From assembly GCA_963663275.1 (NCBI GenBank), contig OY760183.1, positions 192,001 through 256,000 on the forward strand: a stretch of DNA of 64,000 nucleotides, read 5' to 3'. Under the pieces are notes generated by a model. It worked only from the letters and a program-made list of their open reading frames with translations. It was not told the origin of the DNA and did no database searches. Source of the stretch: Chloroflexota bacterium. Its GTDB lineage: Bacteria; Chloroflexota; UBA11872; VXOZ01. The position numbers were made by a program, and so were the translations under genes. This document shows positions 5,913 to 34,955 of this stretch, piece after piece (positions within the stretch are counted from its first letter, which is position 1; every line of letters starts with the position of its first letter).

Positions 5913-6914
5913 ATGGCCGTAACGACACGCTCCGAGGAAGCAACCGAAGAGAGCCGCCAGGCCGCCCGCGGCGGCATACCCATGCCCCCGAAAGGCGTGC
6001 TGGCCCTGGCCGGGTTCGTCGCCTTGTTCATCGTGACGCTGCTGGTGTGGGGGCCCAGGACGGAGTTTCCGCTCGACTGGAGCAACGGCATCAGCCGCTG
6101 GATCAATGAAGGCGTGGAAACCATCACCGTCGCCTGGGGCCCGGCGTTCGACCTGGTGTCCGATTCGGTGCTGCACTTCCTGCTGTGGATCGAGACGGCG
6201 TTCCTGTGGACGCCGTGGCCGGTGGTAGTCGTGGCCGTCGCCGCCATCGCCTGGGCCACGGTCGGCTGGAAATTTGCCGCGTTCGGCACGATCGCGCTGC
6301 TCACCACCGGCGTGTTCGGCCTCTGGGAGAGCGCGATGGAGACCATGGCGCTCATCGTCGTCTCGGTCTTCCTCTCCATCGTCGTGGGCATTCCCATCGG
6401 GGTGCTGGCCGCGCGCAGCAACACCTTCGACGCGGTCCTCAAACCGCTGCTGGACGGCATGCAGACCATGCCGTCGTTCGTCTACCTGGTGCCGGTGGTC
6501 ATGTTCTTCGGCATCGGCAACGTGCCCGCCGTCTTTGCCACCATCATCTACGCCGCGCCGCCCACGATTCGCTTCACCAGCCTCGGCATCCGGGAAGTCA
6601 GCCCGCAGGTGGTGGAAGCGGCGCGCTCCTTTGGCACCACCCCCCGCCAACTGCTCTTCAAGGTGCAACTGCCCATGGCGATGCCGACCATCATGGCCGG
6701 CATCAATCAAACGACCATGATGGCGCTGGCGATGATGGTGATTGCCTCGCTGGTGGGCGCCGGCGGCCTGGGCGAGGACGTGCAGCGGGCGCTCTCGCGG
6801 GCGCAGCCGGGTCAGGCGCTGCTGGGCGGCCTGGGCATCGTCTTCCTGGCAATCATCATCGACCGCATCACGCAAGCCTGGGCGAAGAGCCGGCAAGAAT
6901 CTTTGCGGATGTAG
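5913..6914 (+). CDS. proW: Glycine betaine/proline ABC transporter permease
   Basis: LDGMQTMPSFVYLVP, EAARSFG, KVQLPMAMPTIMAGINQT. Confidence 0.93.
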   Translation: MAVTTRSEEATEESRQAARGGIPMPPKGVLALAGFVALFIVTLLVWGPRTEFPLDWSNGISRWINEGVETITVAWGPAFDLVSDSVLHFLLWIETAFLWTPWPVVVVAVAAIAWATVGWKFAAFGTIALLTTGVFGLWESAMETMALIVVSVFLSIVVGIPIGVLAARSNTFDAVLKPLLDGMQTMPSFVYLVPVVMFFGIGNVPAVFATIIYAAPPTIRFTSLGIREVSPQVVEAARSFGTTPRQLLFKVQLPMAMPTIMAGINQTTMMALAMMVIASLVGAGGLGEDVQRALSRAQPGQALLGGLGIVFLAIIIDRITQAWAKSRQESLRM

Positions 6915-7008
6915 GGCATTTTTGCTGCATTAATGGTTGATTGTGGAGCGGATTTGCGGCATTATTAGGCTAGAGCGTTGTATACACAATTGGGAGGTTC
7001 CCAACGTT

Positions 7009-20584: not shown

Positions 20585-20755
20585 GGGCTTGTCCCCCGCC
20601 GGAACGAGAAAAGTGAGAACGGAATGGACTGACCCTACGGAAGACGCAGGTTACGCGCACCTCCCGTGCGAACCTGCGCTACCGGAGAAACGAGCGTAGT
20701 TTTCATTCTCATTGCGTTTATTGCGACAACACTAGGGCTTGCCCCGCGCGCCGGT

Positions 20756-22675
20756 TCAACTCTTACGGTCCGTAAGCCAGATCGGGCTTGCCCAGGCAAT
20801 CTGCCGATTGCCCTGCGACACACGAAGATAGTAGAAGACGAAGGAACGATCATGGGCAAACGTGGGTGCAAGGGCCAGCGCAGCCAGAGATTCGGCGTCC
20901 GTCCATTCACCCTCCCAGACGTCGTTGCCCGGATTTGCTGAAAACACCACTTCGTTATTCCGGAGCAACTCAACCGAGTCAATGCGATAGGTACCCGCCG
21001 CGCGCATGGCGAATCGTCTGGGTCCGTACTGAGCAAGGTCTACGTCCAGGTCGGTACCCATCGGCGCGTCGTTCATGGTGAAATCCAGCAGAATGCGATC
21101 GCCGGTAGTTGCGTAGCAGCGGCGCTCGTTGAGCGCCTGCCAAATGGCATCCCGTGTCAACTCGCGCGCCACGACGCAGGCGAGGCCGTTGCCGTCGTCC
21201 ACGAAGAAACTGCCCTGGTTTGCCAGGCCGTGATGGGAGTCCGTGCCGCCGATGAAACCAAGCCGGTGCCCCATGGCCAGCGCCCGCTGCACGCTGTACG
21301 GCCCGCCGGTCTCCGAGATGCCCCAGCTTGAGCAAATCTCCACCAAGCGCTGGTGCTCGTCGTTGCGGTAGTCCCAGTTGGTGACATTGCCGAATTTTGT
21401 GTGATGCGGGATGGTCAGAGCCTCGCGCCCTGCCAGGATCTTCCAAAGCTCATCCGGCGTCATGCCGCCGGGCCCGAATGAACGGATGAATTCGGCGCTG
21501 TCGCCGCGGTGGTAGATGTTCTTGTGGCCGTTGGGATTGCCCGTGCCCCACTCGTGGCTGACCAGCGTGACGAACCGGTGGGGATCATTGAAAGCGTTGG
21601 ACGTATCCACCACCTCCTGCCAGACGTCATCGACGATCTCGAAGCGCATCTTATAGTGATTGGCCGGCGCGCAGAAGTCCAGGCCCGCCACGTCGCGCCC
21701 CCACTGAAAGAACTCTTCGGTCGTGCCAGTTCCCTGGCTGTGCCACATCTGGCTGTGCATCTCGCCAAAGTAGACGCACCGGTCCGGCAGGAACCCCGCG
21801 CCGATAGGATTGCTCTTGCCGGCGATGCCGGTGGCAGGGTCTACCACCGTGACCCGGTGGATGCCTTCGCTGGTGGCCTTTGCTTGCATGGAGGCGCCGG
21901 TGGCGTTTGCCTTCTGGTCAAGGGCAACGCCTCCCGGTATGTCGAGCCCTTCAGTGACGATGGTATTGGCATAGCCCGCATAGCCGGTCGCCGCATTGTA
22001 GCTATAGCCGTCCACCGGCAGCACGCGAATGGAGCACTCCTCACCCGGCTGGACGACGGCAGGCGCGAACACCTTGAAGCGCTCGGCATGGGCGCCCACC
22101 ACGCGCACGGTTGGGTGCGTGGCGGCGCGCCGGTACGCGCCGTCGCCCGCGCGGTCCACGCCAACCGTAAAGATCGCCACCTGGGCATAGCGCTGGGCCT
22201 GCACCAGATTGCCGTCGGGCGGTCCCAGGACGATGCGGATTGCGTCTCCAGGCTCCAGCTCGCCCTCCTGCACGACCACGTCTACCAGGTCCATGTGCCG
22301 CCCCCATGAGGCCGCGTGGGCCAGCTTCACGTCGAGGCGCGAACACGCTACATCAGTGAATGCCCCATATCCCACCTTGCGAATTTGACCCTTGTCGCGG
22401 CTGCCGACGGTCTTCAGCCCGCGCGGATAGGGATTCCCCAGGTGGCACTCCCACGTGCTCGGCACTTCCATGGTGACGTGGGCTCCCTTTGGGAGCGTGA
22501 TGTCCGGCCCCAGCGTGAGCGTCGCAGTAAACGTGTGCCCACTGGCGGCTTGGACTTGATCCGGCGACATTTCACCGTGGATATCCGCCGGCCGCTCGAA
22601 CTGCCACGAGCGGTTGATGGGAAACCAATCGGAGGTATTGTCAAAGAGGCGCGGCTGCGAGAGTTCCTCTGACAT
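20756..22675 (-). CDS. DUF3604 / CehA-McbA-like PHP metallohydrolase
   Basis: YFGEMHSQ, GLDFCAPANH, GHKNIY, IPHH, GFIGGTDSH, RRCYATTG, WASPIW. Confidence 0.8.
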   Translation of the reverse strand: MSEELSQPRLFDNTSDWFPINRSWQFERPADIHGEMSPDQVQAASGHTFTATLTLGPDITLPKGAHVTMEVPSTWECHLGNPYPRGLKTVGSRDKGQIRKVGYGAFTDVACSRLDVKLAHAASWGRHMDLVDVVVQEGELEPGDAIRIVLGPPDGNLVQAQRYAQVAIFTVGVDRAGDGAYRRAATHPTVRVVGAHAERFKVFAPAVVQPGEECSIRVLPVDGYSYNAATGYAGYANTIVTEGLDIPGGVALDQKANATGASMQAKATSEGIHRVTVVDPATGIAGKSNPIGAGFLPDRCVYFGEMHSQMWHSQGTGTTEEFFQWGRDVAGLDFCAPANHYKMRFEIVDDVWQEVVDTSNAFNDPHRFVTLVSHEWGTGNPNGHKNIYHRGDSAEFIRSFGPGGMTPDELWKILAGREALTIPHHTKFGNVTNWDYRNDEHQRLVEICSSWGISETGGPYSVQRALAMGHRLGFIGGTDSHHGLANQGSFFVDDGNGLACVVARELTRDAIWQALNERRCYATTGDRILLDFTMNDAPMGTDLDVDLAQYGPRRFAMRAAGTYRIDSVELLRNNEVVFSANPGNDVWEGEWTDAESLAALALAPTFAHDRSFVFYYLRVSQGNRQIAWASPIWLTDRKS

Positions 22676-22767
22676 GAATGACCTTTCCTTCGTTCTTTGA
22701 ATATGGCGTGGGTCAGCGCAGAATGCCGGCGATCGCCCTCACCCAAACCCTCTCCCCCAGGATTGGG

Positions 22768-22956
22768 AATCTATCGTAGCGCGGGGGCTTGTCCCCCGCC
22801 TTCGGCGCGAAACACGGCGGGCGGGCGTGTTCACTCCCTCGACCCTGCGCCTTGCGTGGCAGGAAATCTATCGTAGCGCGGGGGCTTGTCCCCCGCCTCT
22901 GGCGCGAAACACGGCGGGCGGGCGTGTTCACTCCCTCGACCCTGCGCCTTGCGTGG
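22768..22956. repeat. 97-bp tandem duplication containing the REP GTAGCGCGGGGGCTTGTCCCCCGC
   Basis: Two near-identical units starting at 22768 and 22865. Confidence 0.88.
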
Positions 22957-23105
22957 GATAGAGTAGTATATATTCCCGGACGCCACAAGTGGTTGTCTTT
23001 TGACGAGGCCTTTGCATAACTCGAATCTGTAGGCAATAGACCCTTTCTCCCTGGGGAGACCTTTGCATAACCCTCTGTTAGGCGAGCAAGTCCCCTCTCC
23101 CTGAG

Positions 23106-23245
23106 GAGACCTTTGCATAACTCCGTCATTCCGGTGAAAACCGGAATCCAGAGCGGTGTTACACCTACAGATTGCATGATGTCAAGCCATTTCACCCCCC
23201 ATCCCAACCTTCCCCCCAATGGGGAAGGGGTTACGCAAAGGTCTC
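23106..23245. mobile_element. MITE family B (IS5/IS1106-like ends)
   Basis: GAGACCTTTGCATAA...TTACGCAAAGGTCTC with CTGAG on both sides; extra left ends at 23005 and 23056. Confidence 0.82.
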
Positions 23246-23348
23246 CTGAGGGAGAGGGTTAGGGTGAGGGGAAAGCGGTGCTGTTCCAGCCCAGTGCCAA
23301 CTGTTTGACAGAGTTAAGCATAGTTCTCCCTGACGAGGCCGATAAACA

Positions 23349-26300
23349 ATGGATGAAACTGAAGACACCGCCCAACTCAGCGACCTGGCCGCCGGCATCC
23401 TGCGGCGGCACGACAACCGCGAGCCCGAGGCCAACATCACCAGCGCCGTGCGCCGATTCCTCACCGACACCGGCCTGGTAAGCGAGGCAGACATCCAGGA
23501 GGAGAATCCGCCCACACAAGGTTCGCGCCAGGCCGTAGACCTGCGCGCGCTGGACACCTTCATCGAGTTCAAGCGCCGCGTCGGCCCCGGCGGCATCACG
23601 CCCAACCCCGATTACGTGCGCCAACTCGACGACTACCTGTCGCAGTCCGCGGCCGCGGGCAAGAGCGTGCGCCTGGGCATCCTGACCGACGGTAAGCACT
23701 GGCTGCTGCGCTGGCCCGGCGCCGGGGCGGTGCGCACCGCGCGCCCGTACGCCTTCATCCTCGAATCTCCTGAAAGCGGCGCCGCTCTTTACACCTGGCT
23801 GCGGGACGAGGCCTTGGCCGCCACCCAGCAGACCCAACCCGACCGGCAGAGCATCACGGCGCGTTTCGGGCCGGACAGCCTGCTGTACCAGCGCGACATC
23901 GACACCCTGCGGCAGCTTTACCAGTCTACCGCCGCCAGCGAGACCATCGCCGTCAAGCGCCGCCTCTGGCACAACCTGCTCATGGCGGCCCTGGGCGAGA
24001 TTGCCCGCGGCCGGCAGCAGATGGACGACCTCTTCGTCCGCCACACCTATCTCAGCATGACCATCGGCATGGTGGTGCAGGCCTCGTTTGGCATTGACAT
24101 TGCCGAAGTCGCGGCCAGCGATCCCGCCGCGCTGCTGCACGGCCGCCGCTTCCACAACGCCACCGGCCTGCACGGCATCGTGGAGTCGGACTTCTTTGCC
24201 TGGCCGGCCGAGGTGGAGGGCGGGCTGGCGCTGGTCAAGACCCTGGCGCGGCGCGTGGCGCGGTTCGATTGGACCCAGGCCCCGGCCGACGTGGGCGCGA
24301 TTCTCTACGAAACCGTCATTCCGCCCGACGAGCGCCGCCAACTGGGCGAATACTACACGCCGGACTGGCTGGCGCGGGTGATGGTGCGCGAGTTGGTCGC
24401 CGAACCGCTTGACCAACGGGTGCTGGATCCGGCCTGCGGTTCCGGCACCTTCATCGTGGAAGCCGTGGCGCATTTTTTGGAAGCGGCACGCGCGGCAAAC
24501 CTCGCGCCTGACATAGTTATGGAAAAACTACGGCTGGCGGTGACCGGCATCGACGTGCATCCGGTGGCGGTGCACCTGGCCCGCGCCGCGTGGACGCTGG
24601 CGGCGCGCCCGGCCATCATGGCCGCCGCCCGCGCCGGCTACAGCAATCCCATCTCCGTGCCGGTCTACCTGGGCGACGCGCTGCAACTGCGCTTCCACAC
24701 CGGCGACATGATTGCTGCCAATGAGGTGCGCATCGAGGTTGAAGACGAACAGAACACGACCCTGATCTTCCCGACCTCTCTGGTGGCCCGCGCCGACACC
24801 TTCGACCCGCTGCTGAGCGACGTGGCCGACGCCACCGAACGCGGCGCCGACCCCCGCGTGGCCCTGGACGACCACGCCGTCACCGACCCCTACGAGCGCG
24901 AAACCCTGCGACACACCATCGCCGCAATGCAACGCCTCCACGCCGCCGGCCGCGACCACATCTGGGCCTACTACACCCGCAACCTCGTCCGCCCCGTCGT
25001 CCTCAGCCGCGAAAAAGTGCACGTAATCATCGGCAACCCACCGTGGCTGAACTACAACCAAACTGTGAGCACCCTGCGCACCGCATTGGAAGACCTGAGC
25101 AAGGACCGCTACGGCATCTGGACCGGCGGCCGCTACGCCACCCACCAGGACGTGGCCGGCCTCTTCTTCACCCGCTGCGTTGACCTCTACCTACGAGACG
25201 GCGGCGTGATCGGCATGGTGTTGCCCCACAGCGCGCTGCAAACGGGACAGTACACCAAGTGGCGCACCGGCCTCTGGCGCTCCAAACCACAGGGCCGGGG
25301 CCGCAACCGCACGCCTACGCTCACCTTGTCGGTGGAGTTCGACTACAAGCGGGCCTGGGACTTGGAACGGCTGGAACCCAATACCTTCTTCCCGATACCT
25401 GCCTGTGTTGTCTTTGCGCAGAGCACCGGCGATAGCGGAGTGGCGAACGCCCTAAAGGGAACCGTCGAGCGGTGGCGCGGCAAGACCGGGGCAGACGACA
25501 ACCACAGGGAGCCTATGCCCATCACCGACACATCAGATATTGGCGATTCTCATTACGCCAAGCACGCAAAACAAGGAGCGGTGATTGTACCTCGCTGCCT
25601 GTTCTTCGTGCACGAGGGCGAAAACCCGGCCATCATCCAGGCCGGCCAAACGGTCATTGTTAACCCACGACGAGGAACTTATGACAAGGAGCCGTGGCGC
25701 GGCCTTGACCTTTCACTAATCGCTGGTCAGGCCATTGAGCGTCAGCATGTCTTTGACGTGCACTTGGGAGAGACTGTTGTACCCTACGCTACGCTTGACG
25801 CTCTCAAGGCGGCGCTACCGCTAAAACGGGATGACACCACTCCGCCTGCCGACCCGAACGGAGTGGGCGGTATCCGCCTCGGTGGACTGGATAGACGGAT
25901 GCGCGAACGCTGGCAGACCGCTAGTTCTTTGTGGGAAGAGAACAAAGCGGCAGCCAACGAACTGGACTTGCTGGGTCAGTTAGACTATTACGGCAAACTG
26001 TCTGCACAACTCGAATGGCGGCAGAATCTCTCTACCAGACCCGTTCGCGTAGTCTATAATTCCTCGGGCACGCCGACAGCGGCATTGCTCTGCGACGATG
26101 ACGCTTTGGTTGATTACACGCTGTTTTGGATTGCCTGTAACAATGTCCAAGAAGCCTACTACCTGCTAGCAATCATCAACAGCGATGCCCTGTACGAGGC
26201 CGTAACCCCGTTGATGGCTAAAGGCCAGTTCGGCGCACGCCATCTACAGAAGCACCTCTGGAAACTCCCCATCCTCGCATTCGACCCATCCGTCCCCCTC

Positions 26301-26486
26301 CACGCCGCCATAGCCGACGCCGGCCAAACTGCCGCCACCGCCGCCGCCCACCAACTCGAGCAACTCCGCGCTACCCGCCCCCGACTCACCGTAACCATAG
26401 CCCGTCGCGAACTCCGCAAATGGCTCCGCGCGTCTACCGAAGGCCAAGCCGTTGAGGAAGTGGTCAAGAAGCTATTGAACGGCTAG
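23349..26486 (+). CDS. Type IIG-like fused restriction endonuclease / N6-adenine methyltransferase
   Basis: N-terminal VD...IEFKR and GILTDG; LGEYYTPDW, VLDPACGSGTF, IIGNPPW; C-terminal TRD-like region (YLLAIINS). Confidence 0.9.
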   Translation: MDETEDTAQLSDLAAGILRRHDNREPEANITSAVRRFLTDTGLVSEADIQEENPPTQGSRQAVDLRALDTFIEFKRRVGPGGITPNPDYVRQLDDYLSQSAAAGKSVRLGILTDGKHWLLRWPGAGAVRTARPYAFILESPESGAALYTWLRDEALAATQQTQPDRQSITARFGPDSLLYQRDIDTLRQLYQSTAASETIAVKRRLWHNLLMAALGEIARGRQQMDDLFVRHTYLSMTIGMVVQASFGIDIAEVAASDPAALLHGRRFHNATGLHGIVESDFFAWPAEVEGGLALVKTLARRVARFDWTQAPADVGAILYETVIPPDERRQLGEYYTPDWLARVMVRELVAEPLDQRVLDPACGSGTFIVEAVAHFLEAARAANLAPDIVMEKLRLAVTGIDVHPVAVHLARAAWTLAARPAIMAAARAGYSNPISVPVYLGDALQLRFHTGDMIAANEVRIEVEDEQNTTLIFPTSLVARADTFDPLLSDVADATERGADPRVALDDHAVTDPYERETLRHTIAAMQRLHAAGRDHIWAYYTRNLVRPVVLSREKVHVIIGNPPWLNYNQTVSTLRTALEDLSKDRYGIWTGGRYATHQDVAGLFFTRCVDLYLRDGGVIGMVLPHSALQTGQYTKWRTGLWRSKPQGRGRNRTPTLTLSVEFDYKRAWDLERLEPNTFFPIPACVVFAQSTGDSGVANALKGTVERWRGKTGADDNHREPMPITDTSDIGDSHYAKHAKQGAVIVPRCLFFVHEGENPAIIQAGQTVIVNPRRGTYDKEPWRGLDLSLIAGQAIERQHVFDVHLGETVVPYATLDALKAALPLKRDDTTPPADPNGVGGIRLGGLDRRMRERWQTASSLWEENKAAANELDLLGQLDYYGKLSAQLEWRQNLSTRPVRVVYNSSGTPTAALLCDDDALVDYTLFWIACNNVQEAYYLLAIINSDALYEAVTPLMAKGQFGARHLQKHLWKLPILAFDPSVPLHAAIADAGQTAATAAAHQLEQLRATRPRLTVTIARRELRKWLRASTEGQAVEEVVKKLLNG

Positions 26487-26606
26487 CGTAAGCCATTGCC
26501 ACTTGCAACCCCCAATGCGAGCCTGACGGCAGACCAGTGACAAGACCCGCATCTTGTTGGTACATTGCCAGATAATCTGACGGAATTGCTCGAAGGGCGG
26601 CGAGTG

Positions 26607-27041
26607 ATGAATCTTCCATACCCAGAGCCAACGAGCGCCACTGCGACCAAGAAGATGCGCTCCAACCGTCGGGTCGATACGAAACCCGAAGTTGCGCTCA
26701 GGTCATTGCTGCACCGGCGAGGGCTGCGCTTCAGGAAAGATTACCCCATTCGCCTACCGAACGGTCGGACAGTACACCCGGACATCGTCTTCACCAGGAA
26801 GAAACTCGCCATATTCGTGGACGGCTGCTTCTGGCACTCATGCCCCGAACACGGCACGACGCCAAAGACCAACCAGGACTACTGGACTCCCAAGCTGCGG
26901 CAGAATGTCGAGAGGGACAAGAAAACAGACGACGGCTTGCGGACTAATGGATGGCAGGTCGTACGTATATGGGAACACACAGGTTCAGAAGATGCCATAG
27001 CCACGATCCAAGGGGCTCTGGCACAATCTTGCGTCACTTAA
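26607..27041 (+). CDS. vsr: Very short patch repair endonuclease
   Basis: MRSNRRVDTKPE, PDIVF, IFVDGCFWHSCPEH, VVRIWEH. Confidence 0.93.
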   Translation: MNLPYPEPTSATATKKMRSNRRVDTKPEVALRSLLHRRGLRFRKDYPIRLPNGRTVHPDIVFTRKKLAIFVDGCFWHSCPEHGTTPKTNQDYWTPKLRQNVERDKKTDDGLRTNGWQVVRIWEHTGSEDAIATIQGALAQSCVT

Positions 27042-29046
27042 AGTTTGGATTCATGGCTTTGATGTCTTCTATTGAAATGCTGTTAATTAGGCGGAATACT
27101 CTTCCTGCTTCTGTCTCTCGATCTAGGTAGTCCTCATACGCTTGTAGCGCATTATGGATCAATTCCTCATACCTAATCACTCGAGCCCTTGCTCCTTCAA
27201 GCGTTCTAGCTGACACTTCCCTTCCGCCGGGACTCGACCAATCTGACAATGGCTTGCCGATCAAGCAAATGAATTCTAGGGGTTCGTTAGACCTGCCATG
27301 AGACTCTAATACTTTGGAAACTCCAGTTCGGTACTTGAGGATCTGTTGCACCAATCCACCAGTTTCAAGCGGGCGACTTGCACGCTTCAGTTCGATTATC
27401 ACGTGTTTGTTTCCTGTTGTCGTATAACGAATGTCCAGTCTTGCGAGTCTTTGCTCTTCGGTAAGCGACTGGTAAACCTCGTCGAGCTTCCTAGCGATCT
27501 GGGTTTCCATTCGCGTAGTGTGAGTCGCACGTTCCCAGGATGGGTCCAGCAGCCATAGGTGTTTGTACAGGTGATCCTGAATCACTCTTTCCTTGGCGTC
27601 ATCGTCAATCAGGTCTGTCAGCTTATCTATAACTTCCAGCCGATCTTTGCTGATTTGGTAGTATGCGCTCGCCTCCAAATCATCAAGTTGACTGAAGACG
27701 TCACCGAGTGAACCTAAGTTTTCCGCCGATAGTTGCTCTATGCGATGTAAGAGATGCCGGAACTTCAAACTTTCAAATGCCAGTATTCCGCTGACGAACA
27801 GTTGTCGTTTTTGGCTAACGTCGTCAATTGGCAGTTGGTTGAATTTGCCGAACAATTGCTCTGCTGACCTCTTGTGATCAGGGCTGAGGCTTTCGTACCA
27901 TTCCTTGATTTGAGGAATTGTAACGGCAACTTTCCGTCCCTGATTGTTTCTCAGAACAGTCCAATCGCTTTGTATGGCTTTCAACTCGGACTGGAGTTTC
28001 GATCTCAGAGCCTGGTACCTCGGATCTTCCTCTATGATCCGCTGTCTGCTGGTGGTAGCGATGTCATCTGCATGATCTAGATCGAGGAAGTCAGCGTGGA
28101 TTTCCCCAATGATGTACTTGCTGTAAATTCCGCCTTCGCCAAACTCCTCCAGGATGTCTTCCTGGGCTAACTTCCCTCGTACCATTACTACAATCTTGTT
28201 TATGCTCTCGCCGGTGTCCGAATCTTTCAGTTGACCAGCTTCTTTGACCGTTCCAATCCAGCCGTCGATCGCAAACTTGGCTTCGCCTACTTCGACTTCC
28301 CCTGCGCGTGGCTTTTGGTGCTCCAAATTACTTGCAAGGGTACGAGCCTCTTCTCCACGTGCGCCGAATGTCCACATGTACTGAAGCTTGTCGTAGTAAT
28401 CACGATCCTCAATAGTAATCGGAGCACTGTCCAATTCGATTTCAAAGTGATGCTTAGCTCCTATGATGCTGAATCTGCGAGCGAGCCTGCGTCTCAAAGC
28501 TGAACTGGACCGATGAAGCTGGCGCTTCATATCGGTAAGGAATATCTTGGTACCTTTCGCAATCTCGACTCTCGCAGGATCGACAGGGTCAGGCGAGTAT
28601 TCATTGTCTTCGCTATCCGTAATAGCTTTCTCAATGTCGTCGAGGTTCATTCTGAAACCATGTCGCTTGCCCTGCTTCACACTGTGGACTTCGACGGTCC
28701 TTGCGATAGAGAATAGGGACAGCTTGCCAATCCCCTTTCGTCCCATCACTGGCCTTTGAAACCTTGGCGACCTGGCCCCGTCTTTCTGTTTGCGACGCTC
28801 GTAACCGACCGTCAGGTACCTGTCGTTCGCGTCGTCCACGCTCATGCCGTGTCCGTCGTCCTGGATCACGATCCTGTCGCCCCGAGGGTCGATCTCAATG
28901 ATCACGTGCTCGGCATCAGCATCCCACGCGTTGGCAACTACCTCTGAAAGGACTGCGGGCACGTTGCTGTAGAGCCCTAACCCCAAGTGCTTCAGCACAT
29001 TCAGATCCAGCGTCATCCTATATTTGTGTTCGCTGTCGTCAGTCAT
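27034..29046 (-). CDS. GHKL (MORC-like) ATPase with C-terminal PD-(D/E)xK nuclease-like domain
   Basis: EVVANAWDADA, IQDDGHGM, GRKGIGKLS; RLDIRY...VIIELKR. Confidence 0.85.
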   Translation of the reverse strand: MTDDSEHKYRMTLDLNVLKHLGLGLYSNVPAVLSEVVANAWDADAEHVIIEIDPRGDRIVIQDDGHGMSVDDANDRYLTVGYERRKQKDGARSPRFQRPVMGRKGIGKLSLFSIARTVEVHSVKQGKRHGFRMNLDDIEKAITDSEDNEYSPDPVDPARVEIAKGTKIFLTDMKRQLHRSSSALRRRLARRFSIIGAKHHFEIELDSAPITIEDRDYYDKLQYMWTFGARGEEARTLASNLEHQKPRAGEVEVGEAKFAIDGWIGTVKEAGQLKDSDTGESINKIVVMVRGKLAQEDILEEFGEGGIYSKYIIGEIHADFLDLDHADDIATTSRQRIIEEDPRYQALRSKLQSELKAIQSDWTVLRNNQGRKVAVTIPQIKEWYESLSPDHKRSAEQLFGKFNQLPIDDVSQKRQLFVSGILAFESLKFRHLLHRIEQLSAENLGSLGDVFSQLDDLEASAYYQISKDRLEVIDKLTDLIDDDAKERVIQDHLYKHLWLLDPSWERATHTTRMETQIARKLDEVYQSLTEEQRLARLDIRYTTTGNKHVIIELKRASRPLETGGLVQQILKYRTGVSKVLESHGRSNEPLEFICLIGKPLSDWSSPGGREVSARTLEGARARVIRYEELIHNALQAYEDYLDRETEAGRVFRLINSISIEDIKAMNPNFK

Positions 29047-30178
29047 GAAATCTCTCTAGGTGCGCGACTATGGACCTGCCAACCGCCTCGCCAAGCTTCA
29101 CGGGAACCGCATTGCCGATCAGCCGCGCCACTGAGGTGATCTGCACGGATTCTCCTGTTGGGACGAACGAGTAATCTCTTGGAAACGTCTGTAGCAGAGC
29201 GCCCTCGCGCAAGGATATAGCGCGGTCCTGGACCGGGTGGCCAAATCGCCCGTTGCCGTAGCCGTGGAACTGGGTGGTGATGGTTGGAGCAGGCCGGTCC
29301 CACTCCATGCGACCGTAGACGCTGGGATAGGTCTTGCCGGATTGCTTGACATGGCAGTCGGCGCGGAGGTCTTGACCGGATGCTGAATCCGCCCAATCCC
29401 GCCAGGTTCCGCCGGGCTTGGAATGCTGGACGCGCGCCAAGTTCGCAGCGGATAGTCCACTTGACTTGTGCAATGGGTCTAATGGGGACGCCTGCCCTGC
29501 TTCGATGTGCGGCAAATGCTGGATCGCATCCCTTACGGTCACGGAGTCACTATCGGCATGTGTCGGCGGGATCATTTGGATAGGGCCGAGCCTGGAGGCT
29601 AGCAACACCAAGCGCCTTCTCGATTGGGGTACACCGTAGTCGGCACAGTGAACTACAGAATAGTCGCAATAGTAGCCAGCGTTGCGCAAAGCGGCTTGGA
29701 ATTCATCGAAGACGGCATATCCCCGCAAGCGTGGGACATTCTCCATGGTGACGATCTCCGGCTGTAGCGCGGTGACCATTTCGCCAAACTTGGGTAGCAA
29801 TTGCCACTGGGCATCGCGTTCGAATCTGCGATTGGAGTAAGACGAAAACGGCTGACAGGGAGCGCAGCCCGCGAGAATCCTGATGACATTCGCCGGAAAC
29901 AGCGACTCGACGAATCGCGGCGATAGCGCGGCCACATCTTTCTCATAGAATGCAGCTTCGACATTTGCTTCGAACGGGTGTTTGCAAGCGGGGTCGATGT
30001 CGATCCCGGCGCGGATCGTGATGCCAGCGTGCTTCATGCCGTAGGAAAGCCCACCGGCGCCGCAAAAGAGGTCTACGGCAACTGGCTGTGAAGTTGGCTG
30101 CGTCTTGTCGATGGGGGCTTCAAGCCACATATCTCCGCCGCCAGTTGCTACTTGCGGTCTTGGAACTGCCTTCACCAT
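29039..30178 (-). CDS. dcm: DNA (cytosine-5) methyltransferase (alternative start 30130)
   Basis: DLFCGAGG, GCAPCQPFS, MENV, YGVPQSRRR, IGNAVP. Confidence 0.93.
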   Translation of the reverse strand: MVKAVPRPQVATGGGDMWLEAPIDKTQPTSQPVAVDLFCGAGGLSYGMKHAGITIRAGIDIDPACKHPFEANVEAAFYEKDVAALSPRFVESLFPANVIRILAGCAPCQPFSSYSNRRFERDAQWQLLPKFGEMVTALQPEIVTMENVPRLRGYAVFDEFQAALRNAGYYCDYSVVHCADYGVPQSRRRLVLLASRLGPIQMIPPTHADSDSVTVRDAIQHLPHIEAGQASPLDPLHKSSGLSAANLARVQHSKPGGTWRDWADSASGQDLRADCHVKQSGKTYPSVYGRMEWDRPAPTITTQFHGYGNGRFGHPVQDRAISLREGALLQTFPRDYSFVPTGESVQITSVARLIGNAVPVKLGEAVGRSIVAHLERFHD

Positions 30179-30237
30179 AGCCGACTCTGTTCACTTTGAG
30201 CAACTTTGGCTTGGAATCCCCACCTGGCGCCGCGCGG

Positions 30238-30822
30238 GTGAAGGACGTCCTGTGGGGGATGCAGGTGGGGGTGACGGTGTTGGCGGTGGTTCTGGGCGCG
30301 ATCTTTGCCGCCTACAAGTGGCAGGTCTTCCGCGAATCCGAGCCGCACCTGACGATCACCCACGAGGTATCCCACCGGCCCGTCGGCGCAAGCTACGTCC
30401 ACATCGCCGTGACCGCGGTTCTGCACAATAGTTCAAAGGTCAAAATGGAATTTCGCGAAGCGTTTTTTCTCATGCAGAAGATCTCCCCGGTGTCGGACGA
30501 GGAAATTGAAGCACTGTACGCTGAGTACGCTCAGGCATTTGAGCAAGGGGAGTACAAGAACATGCAGTGGGATACGCTTGACAAGATTCCCATCACCTGG
30601 GATGAAGACGTAGTGATCGTGGAACCGGGTGAAATGCATCAAGAAACGTGCGAGTTCATCGTGCCGAAGGACGTTAAGTCGGCTATCATATACTCATATT
30701 TCTATAACTCTCGGGTGCCGCAGGTTCCTCAAGGATGGGGCGCGACTACAGTCCACGACATAGCGGCCCGTGATTGCGGGAGTGTCGATGTGGAAGGAGA
30801 TTGCAATGCCAGCCAAGAATGA
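30238..30822 (+). CDS. Hypothetical protein with N-terminal TM anchor and beta-rich soluble domain; start uncertain (30196/30238/30259)
   Basis: VTVLAVVLGAIFAAY TM segment; open frame; its 3' end is re-copied downstream with mostly synonymous changes, which supports coding. Confidence 0.75.
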   Translation: MKDVLWGMQVGVTVLAVVLGAIFAAYKWQVFRESEPHLTITHEVSHRPVGASYVHIAVTAVLHNSSKVKMEFREAFFLMQKISPVSDEEIEALYAEYAQAFEQGEYKNMQWDTLDKIPITWDEDVVIVEPGEMHQETCEFIVPKDVKSAIIYSYFYNSRVPQVPQGWGATTVHDIAARDCGSVDVEGDCNASQE

Positions 30823-30964
30823 GAAGAAAAGAGGAGATGTCGCCATAAAAGGAGGCGGGCCGAGGCAGAGTCCTCCCAAACGTGAGCCCCCGGTCAAACC
30901 ACCAGGAGCGAGCAAGCCTAAACCCGCGTCCAATCCACCGCAGCAATCCAAGCCGGCCAAGTGA
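30806..30964 (+). CDS. Pro/Lys-rich peptide P1 (52 aa)
   Basis: AAGGAG SD; MPAKNEKKRGDVAIKGGGPRQSPPKREPPVKPPGASKPKPASNPPQQSKPAK. Confidence 0.75.
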   Translation: MPAKNEKKRGDVAIKGGGPRQSPPKREPPVKPPGASKPKPASNPPQQSKPAK

Positions 30965-31000
30965 GCGCCGCCGGGCGGCACGGCGGTTGAACCTTGATCG

Positions 31001-31111
31001 ATGCCGTTGGCGTCCAGGCAGGTAGTCGCCTACTACAATTCGAGAGTGCCGCAAGTTCCCCAGGGTTGGGGCGCGACCGCGATTCACGACATAGCTGACC
31101 ATGGTCAATGA
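31001..31111 (+). pseudogene. Orphan C-terminal fragment of the 30238-30822 gene
   Basis: MPLASRQVVAYYNSRVPQVPQGWGATAIHDIADHGQ; 19/21 aa identical to 30703-30765. Confidence 0.75.
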
Positions 31112-31135
31112 GCAGTAGTGTAAAGGAGGGTTACA

Positions 31136-31279
31136 ATGCCGGCAAGTTCCAAGGTGCAAAGAGAAAGTGTCGGGCCAAAAGGCGGCGGGCCCAAGAAGAG
31201 GCCGCCCAAAGTTCCTTCCAAGAAACCACCGGGAGCAACTCCGCCTAAGCCTCCCCAATCGTCGAAGCCATCCAAGTGA
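31136..31279 (+). CDS. Pro/Lys-rich peptide P2 (47 aa)
   Basis: AAGGAGG SD; MPASSKVQRESVGPKGGGPKKRPPKVPSKKPPGATPPKPPQSSKPSK. Confidence 0.75.
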   Translation: MPASSKVQRESVGPKGGGPKKRPPKVPSKKPPGATPPKPPQSSKPSK

Positions 31280-31338
31280 ACGCCAATCGAAGAGGCTGCT
31301 GGAACGAAGGACTCCAGCCGTTCCAATTGGAGAGCATG

Positions 31339-31701
31339 ATGCCGGAGGAAAGAGAAGCCAGCAAGAGCAGGCCGGTCAGGAGTGGAACGGGCCCAAGGGT
31401 TCGACTTGAACAGTTACCGCCTGAGAAACGCATAGCGGGCAAGAGCGGCACGGGTCCGAAAGAGAATCCGCCGCTGGTGAAGACTTCGCGCAAGCCGCCG
31501 GGCGGATTGGGGTTGACCAAAGCCTCGATAAGGTCGACTATGCCAGCCGACGAAGAGTGCACCAATAGAGTGGTCATCAAGAAGGGAACGGGGCCAAAGC
31601 AGAGGCCCCCTATGACTGCTTCCTCAGGTAAACCCCCGGGCGGCCCGCCTAAACCCAAACCCTCATCTCCACCTCACAAGCAACCGCAATCATCCAATTG
31701 A
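31339..31701 (+). CDS. Fused Pro/Lys-rich peptide units P3a + P3b (internal ATG at 31540)
   Basis: MPEEREASKSRPVRSGTGP...SGTGPKENPP...KPPGG, then MPADEECTNRVVIKKGTGPKQRPPMTASSGKPPGGPPKPKPSSPPHKQPQSSN. Confidence 0.65.
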   Translation: MPEEREASKSRPVRSGTGPRVRLEQLPPEKRIAGKSGTGPKENPPLVKTSRKPPGGLGLTKASIRSTMPADEECTNRVVIKKGTGPKQRPPMTASSGKPPGGPPKPKPSSPPHKQPQSSN

Positions 31702-31791
31702 AGGCAGGCAAGCCGCCGAAGGCCGGGGCGCGACGACCCTCCATGCTATTGTGGAAATGTAACCGCACAGTATGCGCTCATGGAGGTTGCA

Positions 31792-31950
31792 ATGCCAGAC
31801 AACGAGAAAGGCAATGAGACACAGGTCGTCATTAAAGGGACAGGACCAAGAACCGCGCCTCCCAAAGCCGATTCTTCCGGGAAACCCCCGCGAGCGAGCA
31901 GGCCTAAACCCGCGTCCAATCCACCGCAGCAATCCAAGCCGGCTAAGTGA
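31792..31950 (+). CDS. Pro/Lys-rich peptide P4 (52 aa)
   Basis: GGAGG SD; MPDNEKGNETQVVIKGTGPRTAPPKADSSGKPPRASRPKPASNPPQQSKPAK. Confidence 0.75.
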   Translation: MPDNEKGNETQVVIKGTGPRTAPPKADSSGKPPRASRPKPASNPPQQSKPAK

Positions 31951-32074
31951 GCGGCGCCAGGCGCGTTGCCTCAATCTACCTTGCCCCCATGCCTAAGGCT
32001 GGCGCTGGGGCTCCCCAGATAGTTCGCTAGCCGCCTCGGCTCAATAACCTAACCCCTGAGCACTGTCCTCGACA

Positions 32075-32857
32075 TTAAAGCTGCGGCACGCACACTTTGC
32101 CGCCGCGGGCCACGGGCAGGCCGGCGAAGGCGCAGCGGTTGCCCCACTGGTCGATGGCCGCTTTGGACTTGTATTCGTTGATGACCTTGTGGCGGGACGT
32201 GTGGCTGTAGTTATTGCCGGCGGTATGCAGCACCATCACGTGGATGAAGAGCACGTCGCCGGGCTTGGCGATCATCGGCACCGGGTCGTAGTCCGCCACC
32301 TTCTCGTCGGCTACGGTATGGCCGTGTGACGTCTCCCACTCGCCCATCAGGTGGCTGCCGGGCAGCACCGTGGTCGCGCCCGCGTCGACGTCATTGGCAT
32401 CCAGGTAGATGATGGCCGCCGCCAGTTCCGACTTACTGTGGCGCTCGTAGGGCCAGTCCTGGTGCCAGCCCTGTTCATTCGTGAAGCCCGGCGGATTGTT
32501 GCGCACCTTGCCGTTGTGGAAGTCGATGTCCGGGCCGAAGAGGTCGATGAAGACGTTCACTATGCGGGGGTCGGTAACGTTGTTGAACCAGTAATCGCTC
32601 GCCAACGGCTGGTCCATGATGCCCTGCACGTTCTTGGGGTTATAGGGGTCGATGGGATACCCCTCCGCCTGCTCCATGAAGGTGTATCTTATAGCCTCAG
32701 GACGGCCGTCCGTATTGGTGATGAGGTCATGGAACTCCCGCCGCATCTCCTCAATCTCAGCGGCGTTGTACAAGCCCTCCATCACGAGATACCCGTTATC
32801 GTCGAAGAACTGCTTCTGCTCCGGCGCCAAAGTCACCAGTTGCATAGTACTTGCCAT
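32075..32857 (-). CDS. Phytanoyl-CoA dioxygenase (PhyH) family Fe/2OG enzyme
   Basis: FFDDNGYLV, WHQD, VLPGSH, KPGDVLF...H. Confidence 0.88.
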   Translation of the reverse strand: MASTMQLVTLAPEQKQFFDDNGYLVMEGLYNAAEIEEMRREFHDLITNTDGRPEAIRYTFMEQAEGYPIDPYNPKNVQGIMDQPLASDYWFNNVTDPRIVNVFIDLFGPDIDFHNGKVRNNPPGFTNEQGWHQDWPYERHSKSELAAAIIYLDANDVDAGATTVLPGSHLMGEWETSHGHTVADEKVADYDPVPMIAKPGDVLFIHVMVLHTAGNNYSHTSRHKVINEYKSKAAIDQWGNRCAFAGLPVARGGKVCVPQL

Positions 32858-33187
32858 CGTTTCCTCTCCTAATTCTGCCGTGCTCGAATTCGTCGATGGT
32901 GAGCACACCTTGTTCGATTATACAACCTTCTGCGCGAGGCTGGCATGGGGGCGTTCGCACCCGCCTGCGGAGCCCGCGCGCATGGCCTTGCGGAGCGCCA
33001 CTTCAGGCCGATAGCGCCGGTTGCGCGGGAAAAACGCCATGCGGAAGACCACCTCCGCAAACCGTCTTGCGTTACTATGAACTTTAGACTATCGACTGTC
33101 AATAGTACAGTCGCGAATCGAGACAGAACAAGGCTGGATATAGTAGTCTGGGATTGGAGTTTCGCATCGAGCAACGGGAGTGTCCTC

Positions 33188-33914: not shown

Positions 33915-34955
33915 TCACTCCTGAACCTCAACCCTCCCGCCGCCGTGGGAACTCTCATACACCGCCTCGCCGAAGGTGAGCGCCTTGTAGCTATCCCAGA
34001 GGTCGGGGCCGCCGGTTTCCAGGCCCAGGCAGCGGCGGGCGAAGTGGCGCACCTCGCCGGTGTAGCCGAAGTTTATCTGGCTCCGCGCTATGCTGTTCCA
34101 CGCGGGCTCCACGGTGTAGTTGTAGCGGCCCAGGTGCGGCTTCTCCTGCGTCCATTCCTCGTAGGGCTGGTACGTGACCTTCAGCATATCCTCGCAGACC
34201 ACGTGTTTTTCCAGGCCGATGAGTTCCAGGTTCTCGATGATGTCGCGGAACGCCACCTTGGAATCGAGCGTATTGATGTCCATCTGGCCGACCATGCCGT
34301 TCGTGAATTCCACGTTGATCAGATAGGCGAAATTCTGGGGGCCCACCTCGTGGTAGAGCGCGTTCACGGCTTTCACGTCGCCGCCATAGAAGCGCATCAG
34401 GTCGAAGATGTGCACGCATTGGCCGATGAGGAACGCCCGTTTGGCGGAGTCGATGCCCCAGATCTGCGGGTACTTGCCCTGCCCGAACTTGGTCTTGACC
34501 ACGTGCAGGTCGCCAAACTCCGGCCGGGAGACGATCTCCTTGGCGATGAGGTACACGTCGGCAAAGCGCTTCATGAAGCCCACCTGGCCCCACACACCGT
34601 TTGCCTCCGCCATTTCGGCCAGTTCCTTGGCTTCCGCCGAGGTATTGGCCGACGGCTTTTCCGTGTACACCGGCAGGCCGCGCTGCAGCACCACCGGCGC
34701 TAGCTGGTACTGCTGGGGCGCGGGGCCGATGGTGAACACGCCGTCAAGCTCTTCCGTGTCCAGCATCTTGTGCATGTCGGTGTAGACGCGGCGCGCGCCG
34801 AAGTTGCGGGCGTTGCGCTGCGCCTTCTCCTCTTCGATGTCGCACACGGCGACCAGGTCGATTTCGGGGATGAGTTGAATCTGGGGAAAGATCGAGGCGG
34901 TGGCAAAAGCGCCACAGCCGATGAAGGCAAGTCTGGCGCGGCGTTCGGTACTCAT
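33915..34955 (-). CDS. Gfo/Idh/MocA oxidoreductase (paralog 1)
   Basis: AFIGCG, VAVCD, YTEKPS, VGFMKRF. Confidence 0.9.
   Translation of the reverse strand: MSTERRARLAFIGCGAFATASIFPQIQLIPEIDLVAVCDIEEEKAQRNARNFGARRVYTDMHKMLDTEELDGVFTIGPAPQQYQLAPVVLQRGLPVYTEKPSANTSAEAKELAEMAEANGVWGQVGFMKRFADVYLIAKEIVSRPEFGDLHVVKTKFGQGKYPQIWGIDSAKRAFLIGQCVHIFDLMRFYGGDVKAVNALYHEVGPQNFAYLINVEFTNGMVGQMDINTLDSKVAFRDIIENLELIGLEKHVVCEDMLKVTYQPYEEWTQEKPHLGRYNYTVEPAWNSIARSQINFGYTGEVRHFARRCLGLETGGPDLWDSYKALTFGEAVYESSHGGGRVEVQE

Follow-up and report, generated by a model that had tools for sequence, protein, structure and literature searches.

The first 32 kb or so of a 64,000-nucleotide stretch of the genome of a Chloroflexota bacterium (bases 192001-256000 of a 3.53 Mb single-contig genome, contig OY760183.1; hereafter the window, whose own numbering is used) contain a membrane protein gene, c0, followed by a row of short open reading frames (ORFs) rich in proline and lysine. 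The question raised by this locus is whether these ORFs are genes at all, and if so why there are several of them. An earlier note on this DNA, made from the letters alone, took them for a repertoire of variable peptides at the edge of a defence island. We compared the locus with relatives, which are metagenome-assembled genomes (MAGs) of Chloroflexota/Dehalococcoidia. The peptides are genuine conserved genes and partners of the membrane protein, and c0 followed within a few nucleotides by a peptide gene is an accessory two-gene module conserved in Chloroflexota. In the window the module was duplicated in tandem and is now decaying. Tentatively, the peptide would be a ligand restraining a membrane effector, and the explanation as a whole we hold a little short of calling it probable.

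A scan of species genomes for c0 gave 131 confirmed stretches, from which 80 loci were kept. A peptide profile was built from 15 script-picked peptides of these loci and iterated twice. With this profile, 74 of the 80 loci showed at least one peptide unit directly behind c0 and in the same orientation (one unit in 49, two in 22 and three in 3), while all six frames together gave a single minus-strand hit. The earlier note had staked its idea on homologs of c0 carrying such peptides, and they do. In 55 loci with a clear ATG, the distance from the c0 stop to the peptide start had a median of 22 nt; the genes overlapped in 13, lay 0-60 nt apart in 39 and had a Shine-Dalgarno (SD)-like motif in 43. 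The two genes are probably translationally coupled. Within the genus, 12 of 17 genomes had both c0 and the peptide, 5 had neither, and peptide hits were confined to c0 loci. A more distant genome, G139, also had a weak peptide-like ORF about 100 nt downstream (E 0.009).

The peptides of the family are 40-65 aa long, basic and proline-rich. An alignment of 64 sequences showed seven near-invariant positions (M1, G16, P19, K31, P32, P33 and G34 in the numbering of the first window peptide), which form two motifs at fixed spacing, G-x-x-P-[RK] and K-P-P-G. The earlier note also expected purifying selection on the conserved segments, and the ratio of non-synonymous to synonymous substitution rates (dN/dS) agreed with this, being 0.06-0.49 in 15 of 17 evaluable peptide pairs; the remaining two were at 0.72 and 1.08, and only 4 differences underlie the second value. 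For c0 the values were 0.09-0.35, and for the window copy against its relatives 0.11-0.19. In the protein database 87 such peptides were found, and c0 had 204 relatives at E <= 1e-3 in a set of 5.8 billion proteins, all of them unnamed or hypothetical. At E <= 1e-3 the c0 family comprises 1611 representative clusters, and at E <= 1e-10 there are 978. Look-alikes of c0 in the ESM Atlas were 'hypothetical protein' clusters, most commonly from Acidobacteriota, Chloroflexota and Actinomycetota. The pairing of c0 with the peptide is among the tightest that comparative genomics can demonstrate.

In the window itself, five related units, here P1 to P5, start where the earlier note placed them (Table 1). 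Each opens with MP and carries G[GT]GP at positions 16-19 of the peptide. The start of P1 and the end of the membrane gene share 17 nt, and SDs of the AGGAG/GGAGG type precede P1, P2 and P5 as judged by eye, those of P3 and P4 being weaker. The conserved tail that the note ascribed to all five is present in the four intact units; P3 is a composite that lacks tail and stop, contains two core motifs and runs in frame into P4 (read-through ORF 31276-31701). The second core motif of P3 (PPLVKTSRKPPGG) is of a type found also in L008 and in the second L012 peptide, and the peptide profile counts 6 motif units in the window. When the window peptides were searched against the 3.53 Mb genome with tblastn, set loose so that most rows were low-complexity noise and the top rows were used, they matched this locus only, the next best match (E about 4e-4) being of low complexity. 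Since the matches are restricted to the locus and the same type of ORF occurs in 74 of 80 other loci, the array is a real pattern and not a product of chance. Antisense to the array lie two long ORFs, 30746-31258 (-) of 170 aa and 31245-31658 (-) of 137 aa. They were considered as true genes and rejected, as the plus strand is the one that agrees with the profile hits, start codons, SDs and dN/dS; they are probably a by-product of the Pro/Lys codon composition.

Table 1. Features of the c0-peptide locus and its surroundings (window coordinates)
Feature	Coordinates	Strand	Evidence or remarks
Island flank, DUF3604-like gene	20756-22675	-	
Whole island, compared with empty congener site	22769..32070	none	flanking-gene comparison with G096, G094, G092
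Type IIG restriction-modification enzyme 'c1'	23349..26486	+	Pfam N6_Mtase and Eco57I; PADLOC REase_MTase_IIG, E 5.4e-62
Inserted type II restriction-modification cassette	26565..30178	mixed	between type IIG gene and membrane gene
Vsr	26565-27041	+	Pfam Vsr
HATPase-type restriction endonuclease	27034-29046	-	Pfam HATPase_c_3; PADLOC REase_II, E 1e-102
C5 cytosine methyltransferase	29039-30178	-	Pfam DNA_methylase; PADLOC MTase_II
Membrane protein gene c0, 5'-truncated	30196 (TTG) or 30238 (GTG)..30822	+	alignments, foreign contigs, dN/dS
Peptide P1, 52 aa	30806..30964	+	AGGAG-type SD upstream; dN/dS 0.17 against L001 peptide
3' remnant of second c0 copy, before P2	31001..31111	+	profile positions 187-213, stop; DNA repeat 76%
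Peptide P2, 47 aa	31136..31279	+	strong AGGAGG SD
Composite unit P3	31339..31539	+	two core motifs, no tail, no stop, in frame into P4
Peptide P4, 53 aa	31540..31701	+	weak SD
3' remnant of third c0 copy, before P5	31719..31762	+	..GATTLHAIVEM then stop, by eye; repeat 72%
Peptide P5, 52 aa	31792..31950	+	GGAGG SD; dN/dS 0.24 against L012 peptide
Island flank, PhyH gene	32075-32908	-	

How the units came to be several is indicated by two repeats that the earlier note missed. The 3' end of c0 recurs twice, 30702-30772 matching 31033-31103 at 76% identity and 30731-30766 matching 31719-31754 (D3) at 72%, and both repeats sit immediately before a peptide unit. The second of these remnants falls under the threshold of the c0 profile. 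In addition, the tails of P1 and P5 share 84% DNA identity over 106 nt and their SD-plus-start regions 90% over 21 nt. The repeated unit is therefore the end of c0 together with a peptide, left over from tandem duplications of the whole module. Similar arrangements were seen at other loci. In L022 two complete c0-peptide modules stand in tandem; in L010 a c0 gene with two peptide motifs is followed by a second c0, a 3' fragment of c0 and another peptide; and in L012 (= G088) and G085 a 3' fragment of c0 lies between peptides. Tandem Repeats Finder reported a 13-nt micro-repeat at 30252-30279 and nothing else, the peptide units being too diverged for this tool.

Decay of c0 was also seen elsewhere in the genus. 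The gene is split in two in G090 and G097 and reduced to small remnants in G086, whose match includes one TGA, and peptide-like ORFs are still present in all three. Some single ORFs hold two or three core motifs (L046 at 6587-6964, L009, L019, L038 and L059), and in L046 the internal repeats are near-identical, at 47 residues each, so that units have multiplied within genes as well as between them. A 149-nt contig from run X4 matches the P1 tail over 30859-30977 (8 mismatches in 119) and continues, by eye, with 30 letters, of which 29 equal the sequence following P5 (31964-31993). This points to a strain with a P1-like tail as its last or only unit, and variation of array length by recombination between the P1 and P5 tails.

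These duplications bear on the claim that the five units are a selected repertoire of diversified baits or antitoxins, in which an invariant scaffold carries a variable segment of locked length. The units of the window do share a 15-residue register before G[GT]GP. The segment described as variable, residues 3-14, is so at residues 3-10; residues 11-15 are semi-conserved (VAIK, VVIK; V-x-I-K), so the truly variable part is the former. Length-locking likewise holds within the window but not across the family, where the N-terminus varies in length. We compared non-synonymous and synonymous differences per site (pN/pS) in residues 3-10. Copies within the window gave a ratio of 0.82 and three foreign pairs one of 0.52, both from small counts, and window units against their nearest foreign copies (W1-L001 and W5-L012) gave 1.20. 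The last value, taken by itself, would favour diversification, but it rests on tiny counts (3.3 synonymous and 17.7 non-synonymous differences) and the other sets gave 0.52-0.82. The rest of the peptide gave 0.07-0.5 in comparisons with foreign copies. These numbers, small as the counts are, fit near-neutral evolution of residues 3-10 under relaxed constraint and give no solid sign of diversifying selection.

Another observation in favour of a repertoire is a contig from run X3, another metagenome, which agrees with the window to about 95% on either side of 30783-30856 but has 73 other letters in place of that segment. The replaced segment comprises the c0 tail and residues 1-17 of P1, and the exchange looks like allelic or gene-conversion mosaicism confined to it. 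On the other side, the single L001/L002 peptide is like P1 and the L012 peptide like P5, and the second half of P3 is similar to the second peptide of L012 and L008. Because the units have separate counterparts in other genomes, the variation is old and was not made in place, and the window units are old paralogous peptide types. The c0 remnants show duplication of whole modules, 49 of the 80 loci have a single unit, and neither a reverse transcriptase among the 10 ORFs scanned with Pfam nor a template repeat was found, the repeats detected being those of module duplication. A selected repertoire is therefore very improbable, and this central idea of the earlier note gives way to tandem duplication of gene-plus-peptide modules that left remnants behind. 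Under the duplication reading, the differences at residues 3-10 would reflect relaxed constraint on old peptide types and not programmed diversification.

The copy of c0 in the window is itself damaged. It covers positions 32-213 of the 214-position c0 profile, and since the alignment starts at position 32 the first transmembrane (TM) helix is gone. Contigs from runs X1 and X3 match the window from 30228 rightwards and diverge to the left, where their sequence translates, by eye, like the N-terminal part of full-length c0 homologs. The window c0 has thus lost its first TM helix at about 30228, the point at which a type II restriction-modification (RM) cassette went in.

An AF2 model of a full-length homolog, P0005, made from an 87-sequence alignment (pLDDT 88), has helices at 6-28 and 33-69, followed by an eight-strand beta-sandwich with an inserted helix at 122-138. 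Foldseek against PDB placed ApaG/DUF525 structures first (1tza, 1xvs and 1xq4; E 1.4e-5 to 4e-4, TMt 0.56-0.71). Next came Ig-like domains of glycosidases and the luminal domain of TMEM106B, and LEA_2 is also among the neighbours. In 83 c0 sequences, positive residues prevail in the short N-terminus (K+R 1.34, D+E 0.43) and negative ones in the loop between the helices (1.30 and 2.16). By the positive-inside rule these charges predict that the C-terminal beta-sandwich, of about 145 residues, lies in the cytoplasm, where a peptide without a signal sequence could reach it. The model of the peptide showed no secondary structure (pTM 0.19). In L007 the c0 homolog (5959-6456, 166 aa) has a short N-terminus joined directly to the segment after the second TM helix and keeps its downstream peptide; lacking both TM helices, it may be a soluble form.

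The surroundings of the module in the window are those of a defence hot spot. As the earlier note had it, RM genes lie upstream, namely a type IIG RM enzyme, Vsr, a type II restriction endonuclease and a C5 methyltransferase, recognised with Pfam and PADLOC profiles. The two flanking genes, DUF3604-like and PhyH, are 169-170 nt apart in G096 and G094 and about 276 nt apart in G092, so the 9.3 kb between them in the window are an island and the site is empty in these three congeners. At the same site G095 has a type IIG gene (81% identity) and about 1 kb of unassigned sequence, without c0. G091 has, adjoining PhyH, a 5' fragment of c0 only (86% identity to 30234-30416), together with about 2.4 kb of other sequence. 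The GC content drops to 0.475-0.53 at 27000-28999, inside the type II RM cassette and below its surroundings. The locus documents, for one defence hot spot in a single genus, how RM and accessory genes were gained, nested and eroded step by step.

Several further features of the island region were noted. L012 likewise has two minus-strand genes (428 and 413 aa) separating its type IIG gene from c0, perhaps marking this junction as one where insertions recur. The interval from the DUF3604-like gene to the type IIG gene (22733-23330), at the left edge of the island, contains short dispersed repeats: in a query of 20700-23340, pieces such as positions 2173-2206 and 2347-2575 gave 51-83 matches per genome in five congeners, some at 97-100% identity, which looks like a family of the repetitive extragenic palindrome (REP) or miniature inverted-repeat transposable element (MITE) kind. 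At 33931-34000, the start of a GFO/IDH/MocA oxidoreductase region beside the hot spot, there were two to three matches per congener, and L092 has two 1-kb copies of this region at 83-85% identity; these are likely paralogous genes. A search of 22000-33000 against Rfam gave no match at E <= 0.1, no sigma-70-like promoter was found, and terminator-like sites numbered 3 against 3.5 expected. No RNA run was listed for 30196-31960, and the contigs from the runs compared here are of DNA.

We also examined what lies beside c0 in other genomes. The module recurs next to RM and other defence genes, in line with the defence context proposed at the outset. By neighbour clustering, the type IIG family occurs upstream, co-oriented and within 6 kb of c0 in 18 of 81 loci, and it often abuts c0 (L034, L035, L042, L046, L058 and L077). 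The immediate upstream gene, available for 78 loci, was type IIG in 9, HEPN/DUF499 (HmaC) in 2 and GmrSD in 2. On a quick IQ-TREE tree of c0 the type IIG label is scattered, requiring 14 changes, at least 9 of them forced by well-supported branches. Neighbourhoods differ even within the genus.

This linkage could mean that c0 and the peptide are not autonomous but belong as accessories to a type IIG RM-based defence operon of three genes, in which c0 could, for example, be a latent membrane effector guarding the RM enzyme and the peptide its regulator. The spread of the linkage over most c0 clades speaks for such an operon, as does the joint presence of type IIG and c0 in the window hot spot, where G095 keeps a type IIG gene at the same site. 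That same G095 gene, however, stands without c0. Constant adjacency was not seen either: a type IIG gene is missing within 6 kb in 63 of the 81 loci, where c0 and its peptide lie between metabolic genes, and the label is hardly more clustered on the tree than expected, 56 of 500 shuffles being as low. We consider the operon unlikely.

The leading functional reading, and the most plausible, is that the peptide is an antitoxin or bait that restrains c0 as a membrane effector. The module would have come with the type IIG RM gene into a hot spot between two housekeeping genes; whole c0-peptide units would then have duplicated, most extra copies of c0 being deleted, and the first c0 would have lost its TM helix upon insertion of the type II RM cassette. 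The peptide would act as a linear-motif ligand of the cytoplasmic beta-sandwich and hold the effector in check, in a conflict module of the toxin/antidote or abortive-infection kind that often travels with RM genes, notably type IIG. We favour conflict because the genes are tightly coupled, because the distribution is patchy and centred on a hot spot with RM, HEPN and GmrSD neighbours, and because c0 is repeatedly broken while peptide-like ORFs are kept and the small partner is multiplied. The distribution is indeed accessory and mobile-like: of 98 genomes in the class, 18 carry c0 (in 2 of 20 genera), as do 9 of 401 genomes sampled across the phylum, 8 of the 9 in this genus. A broader version, in which c0 and the G-x-x-P-[RK]...K-P-P-G peptides make up a new and widespread class of conflict system, serving as guard or back-up to type IIG enzymes, with the number and the sequence of peptide copies tuning specificity or dosage, is possible, though we would not call it likely.

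That the peptide binds c0, that c0 is toxic and that the module has a part in defence are inferences, and a number of observations weigh against conflict. Neither c0 nor the peptides matched a toxin-antitoxin (TA) or defence profile in Pfam or PADLOC. Most immediate neighbours of c0 are metabolic, among them alcohol dehydrogenase (ADH), phosphoenolpyruvate carboxykinase (PEPCK)-like, aldo-keto reductase and thiamine pyrophosphate (TPP) enzymes, and about 63 of the 81 loci are without a nearby type IIG gene. The decay of c0 could equally mean that the module is dispensable. For a classical type II TA system, the gene order, large first and small second, and the very basic, proline-rich partner are unusual. 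In viral contigs, 16 pattern matches included no relative. The strength of the linkage itself must be read with some care, as the profile was iterated on its own hits and the seed profile alone gave 63 of 81 loci (with no minus-strand hit), and as the loci are phylogenetically non-independent, several coming from near relatives and two (L060 and L061) being identical sequence from one contig record.

Some of these points would equally suit a membrane role outside conflict, with a tethered beta-sandwich of the ApaG/LEA_2 type and disordered, hydrophilic peptides that together protect against stress or form a scaffold; the window copy would then be just a dispensable, decaying gene. Besides the metabolic neighbours and the missing defence match, the purifying selection on both genes and the presence of ApaG, LEA_2 and the TMEM106B luminal domain among the structural neighbours are consistent with it. 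It accounts poorly for the patchy distribution (5 of 16 congeners lack the module, as do all but 9 of the 401 genomes in the phylum sample), for the hot-spot island with its repeated tandem duplication and pseudogenisation, and for the enrichment beside RM, HEPN and GmrSD genes. We regard such a role as decidedly unlikely.

The earlier note had further offered secreted proline-rich effectors and precursors of ribosomally synthesised and post-translationally modified peptides (RiPPs). On such a reading c0 would provide immunity or export. The peptides are indeed small, cationic, proline-rich and present in several copies. However, the listed translations contain no hydrophobic or signal-like segment and almost no Cys, which disfavours secretion. 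RiPP precursors are disfavoured in turn, since no modifying enzyme, protease or transporter recurs beside the module; beyond c0 itself the commonest neighbour cluster, the type IIG RM enzyme, reaches 18 of 81 loci. With only two TM helices in c0 as well, products of either kind are scarcely credible. If the peptide is instead a linear-motif antidote or regulator of c0, it would be a new kind of partner: proline-rich, unstructured by prediction and present in multiple copies. Such a finding would also be a tangible argument for annotating ORFs shorter than 60 aa, most of which gene callers pass over.

The c0-peptide pair is previously undescribed and has no named family assigned to it. A full-text search of the literature, with supplements outside its scope, gave no relevant mention of either gene. 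We compared the module with four known kinds of system. It resembles type II TA and abortive-infection modules in its two tightly coupled genes, its patchy accessory distribution and its hot spot by RM genes; as in those modules, the large gene often decays while the small one is kept, and the small partner is predicted to lack secondary structure. Adjacent, co-oriented and co-occurring genes, by which type II modules are recognised, were found in 74 of 80 loci, with the median gap of 22 nt in the 55 loci that have a clear ATG. In contrast to type II TA systems, the partner is very basic and proline-rich, has no DNA-binding domain and often occurs in 2-6 copies, and no family in Pfam, PADLOC, NCBIfam or PHROGs, of toxins, antitoxins or otherwise, matched c0 or the peptides.

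Cap15-type effectors of CBASS (cyclic oligonucleotide-based antiphage signalling systems) and Pycsar (pyrimidine cyclase systems for antiphage resistance) carry two TM helices at the N-terminus and a small beta domain at the C-terminus. The AF2 model of c0 has the same layout, with two N-terminal TM helices and then a compact, all-beta cytoplasmic domain. Its fold, however, matches ApaG-like structures, with no Cap15 entry among the listed matches and no PADLOC hit, and its partner is a peptide and not a nucleotide signal. No cyclase was seen among the 25 most frequent families of 78 upstream neighbours, the downstream set not having been scanned. ApaG/DUF525 (PF04379) is the best structural match of the soluble domain of c0 and is also among the ESM Atlas structure hits. 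Sequence identity to it is 6-11%, and c0 differs by its inserted helix (122-138) and two-TM anchor; with no Pfam hit for c0 at E <= 0.01, the likeness is one of fold only. The function of ApaG is itself poorly known.

Polymorphic toxin systems are accompanied by orphan cassette arrays, in which repeats of a displaced toxin C-terminus and an immunity gene follow one another. The downstream arrays of the c0 module, each unit a 3' fragment of the large gene plus a small partner and arising by duplication or recombination, have the same form. They differ from orphan cassettes in that the c0 remnants are the conserved C-terminus and not variable toxin tips, in that the module comes without a secretion apparatus or a recognisable toxin domain, and in that the partners are peptides of 40-65 aa predicted to be without secondary structure.

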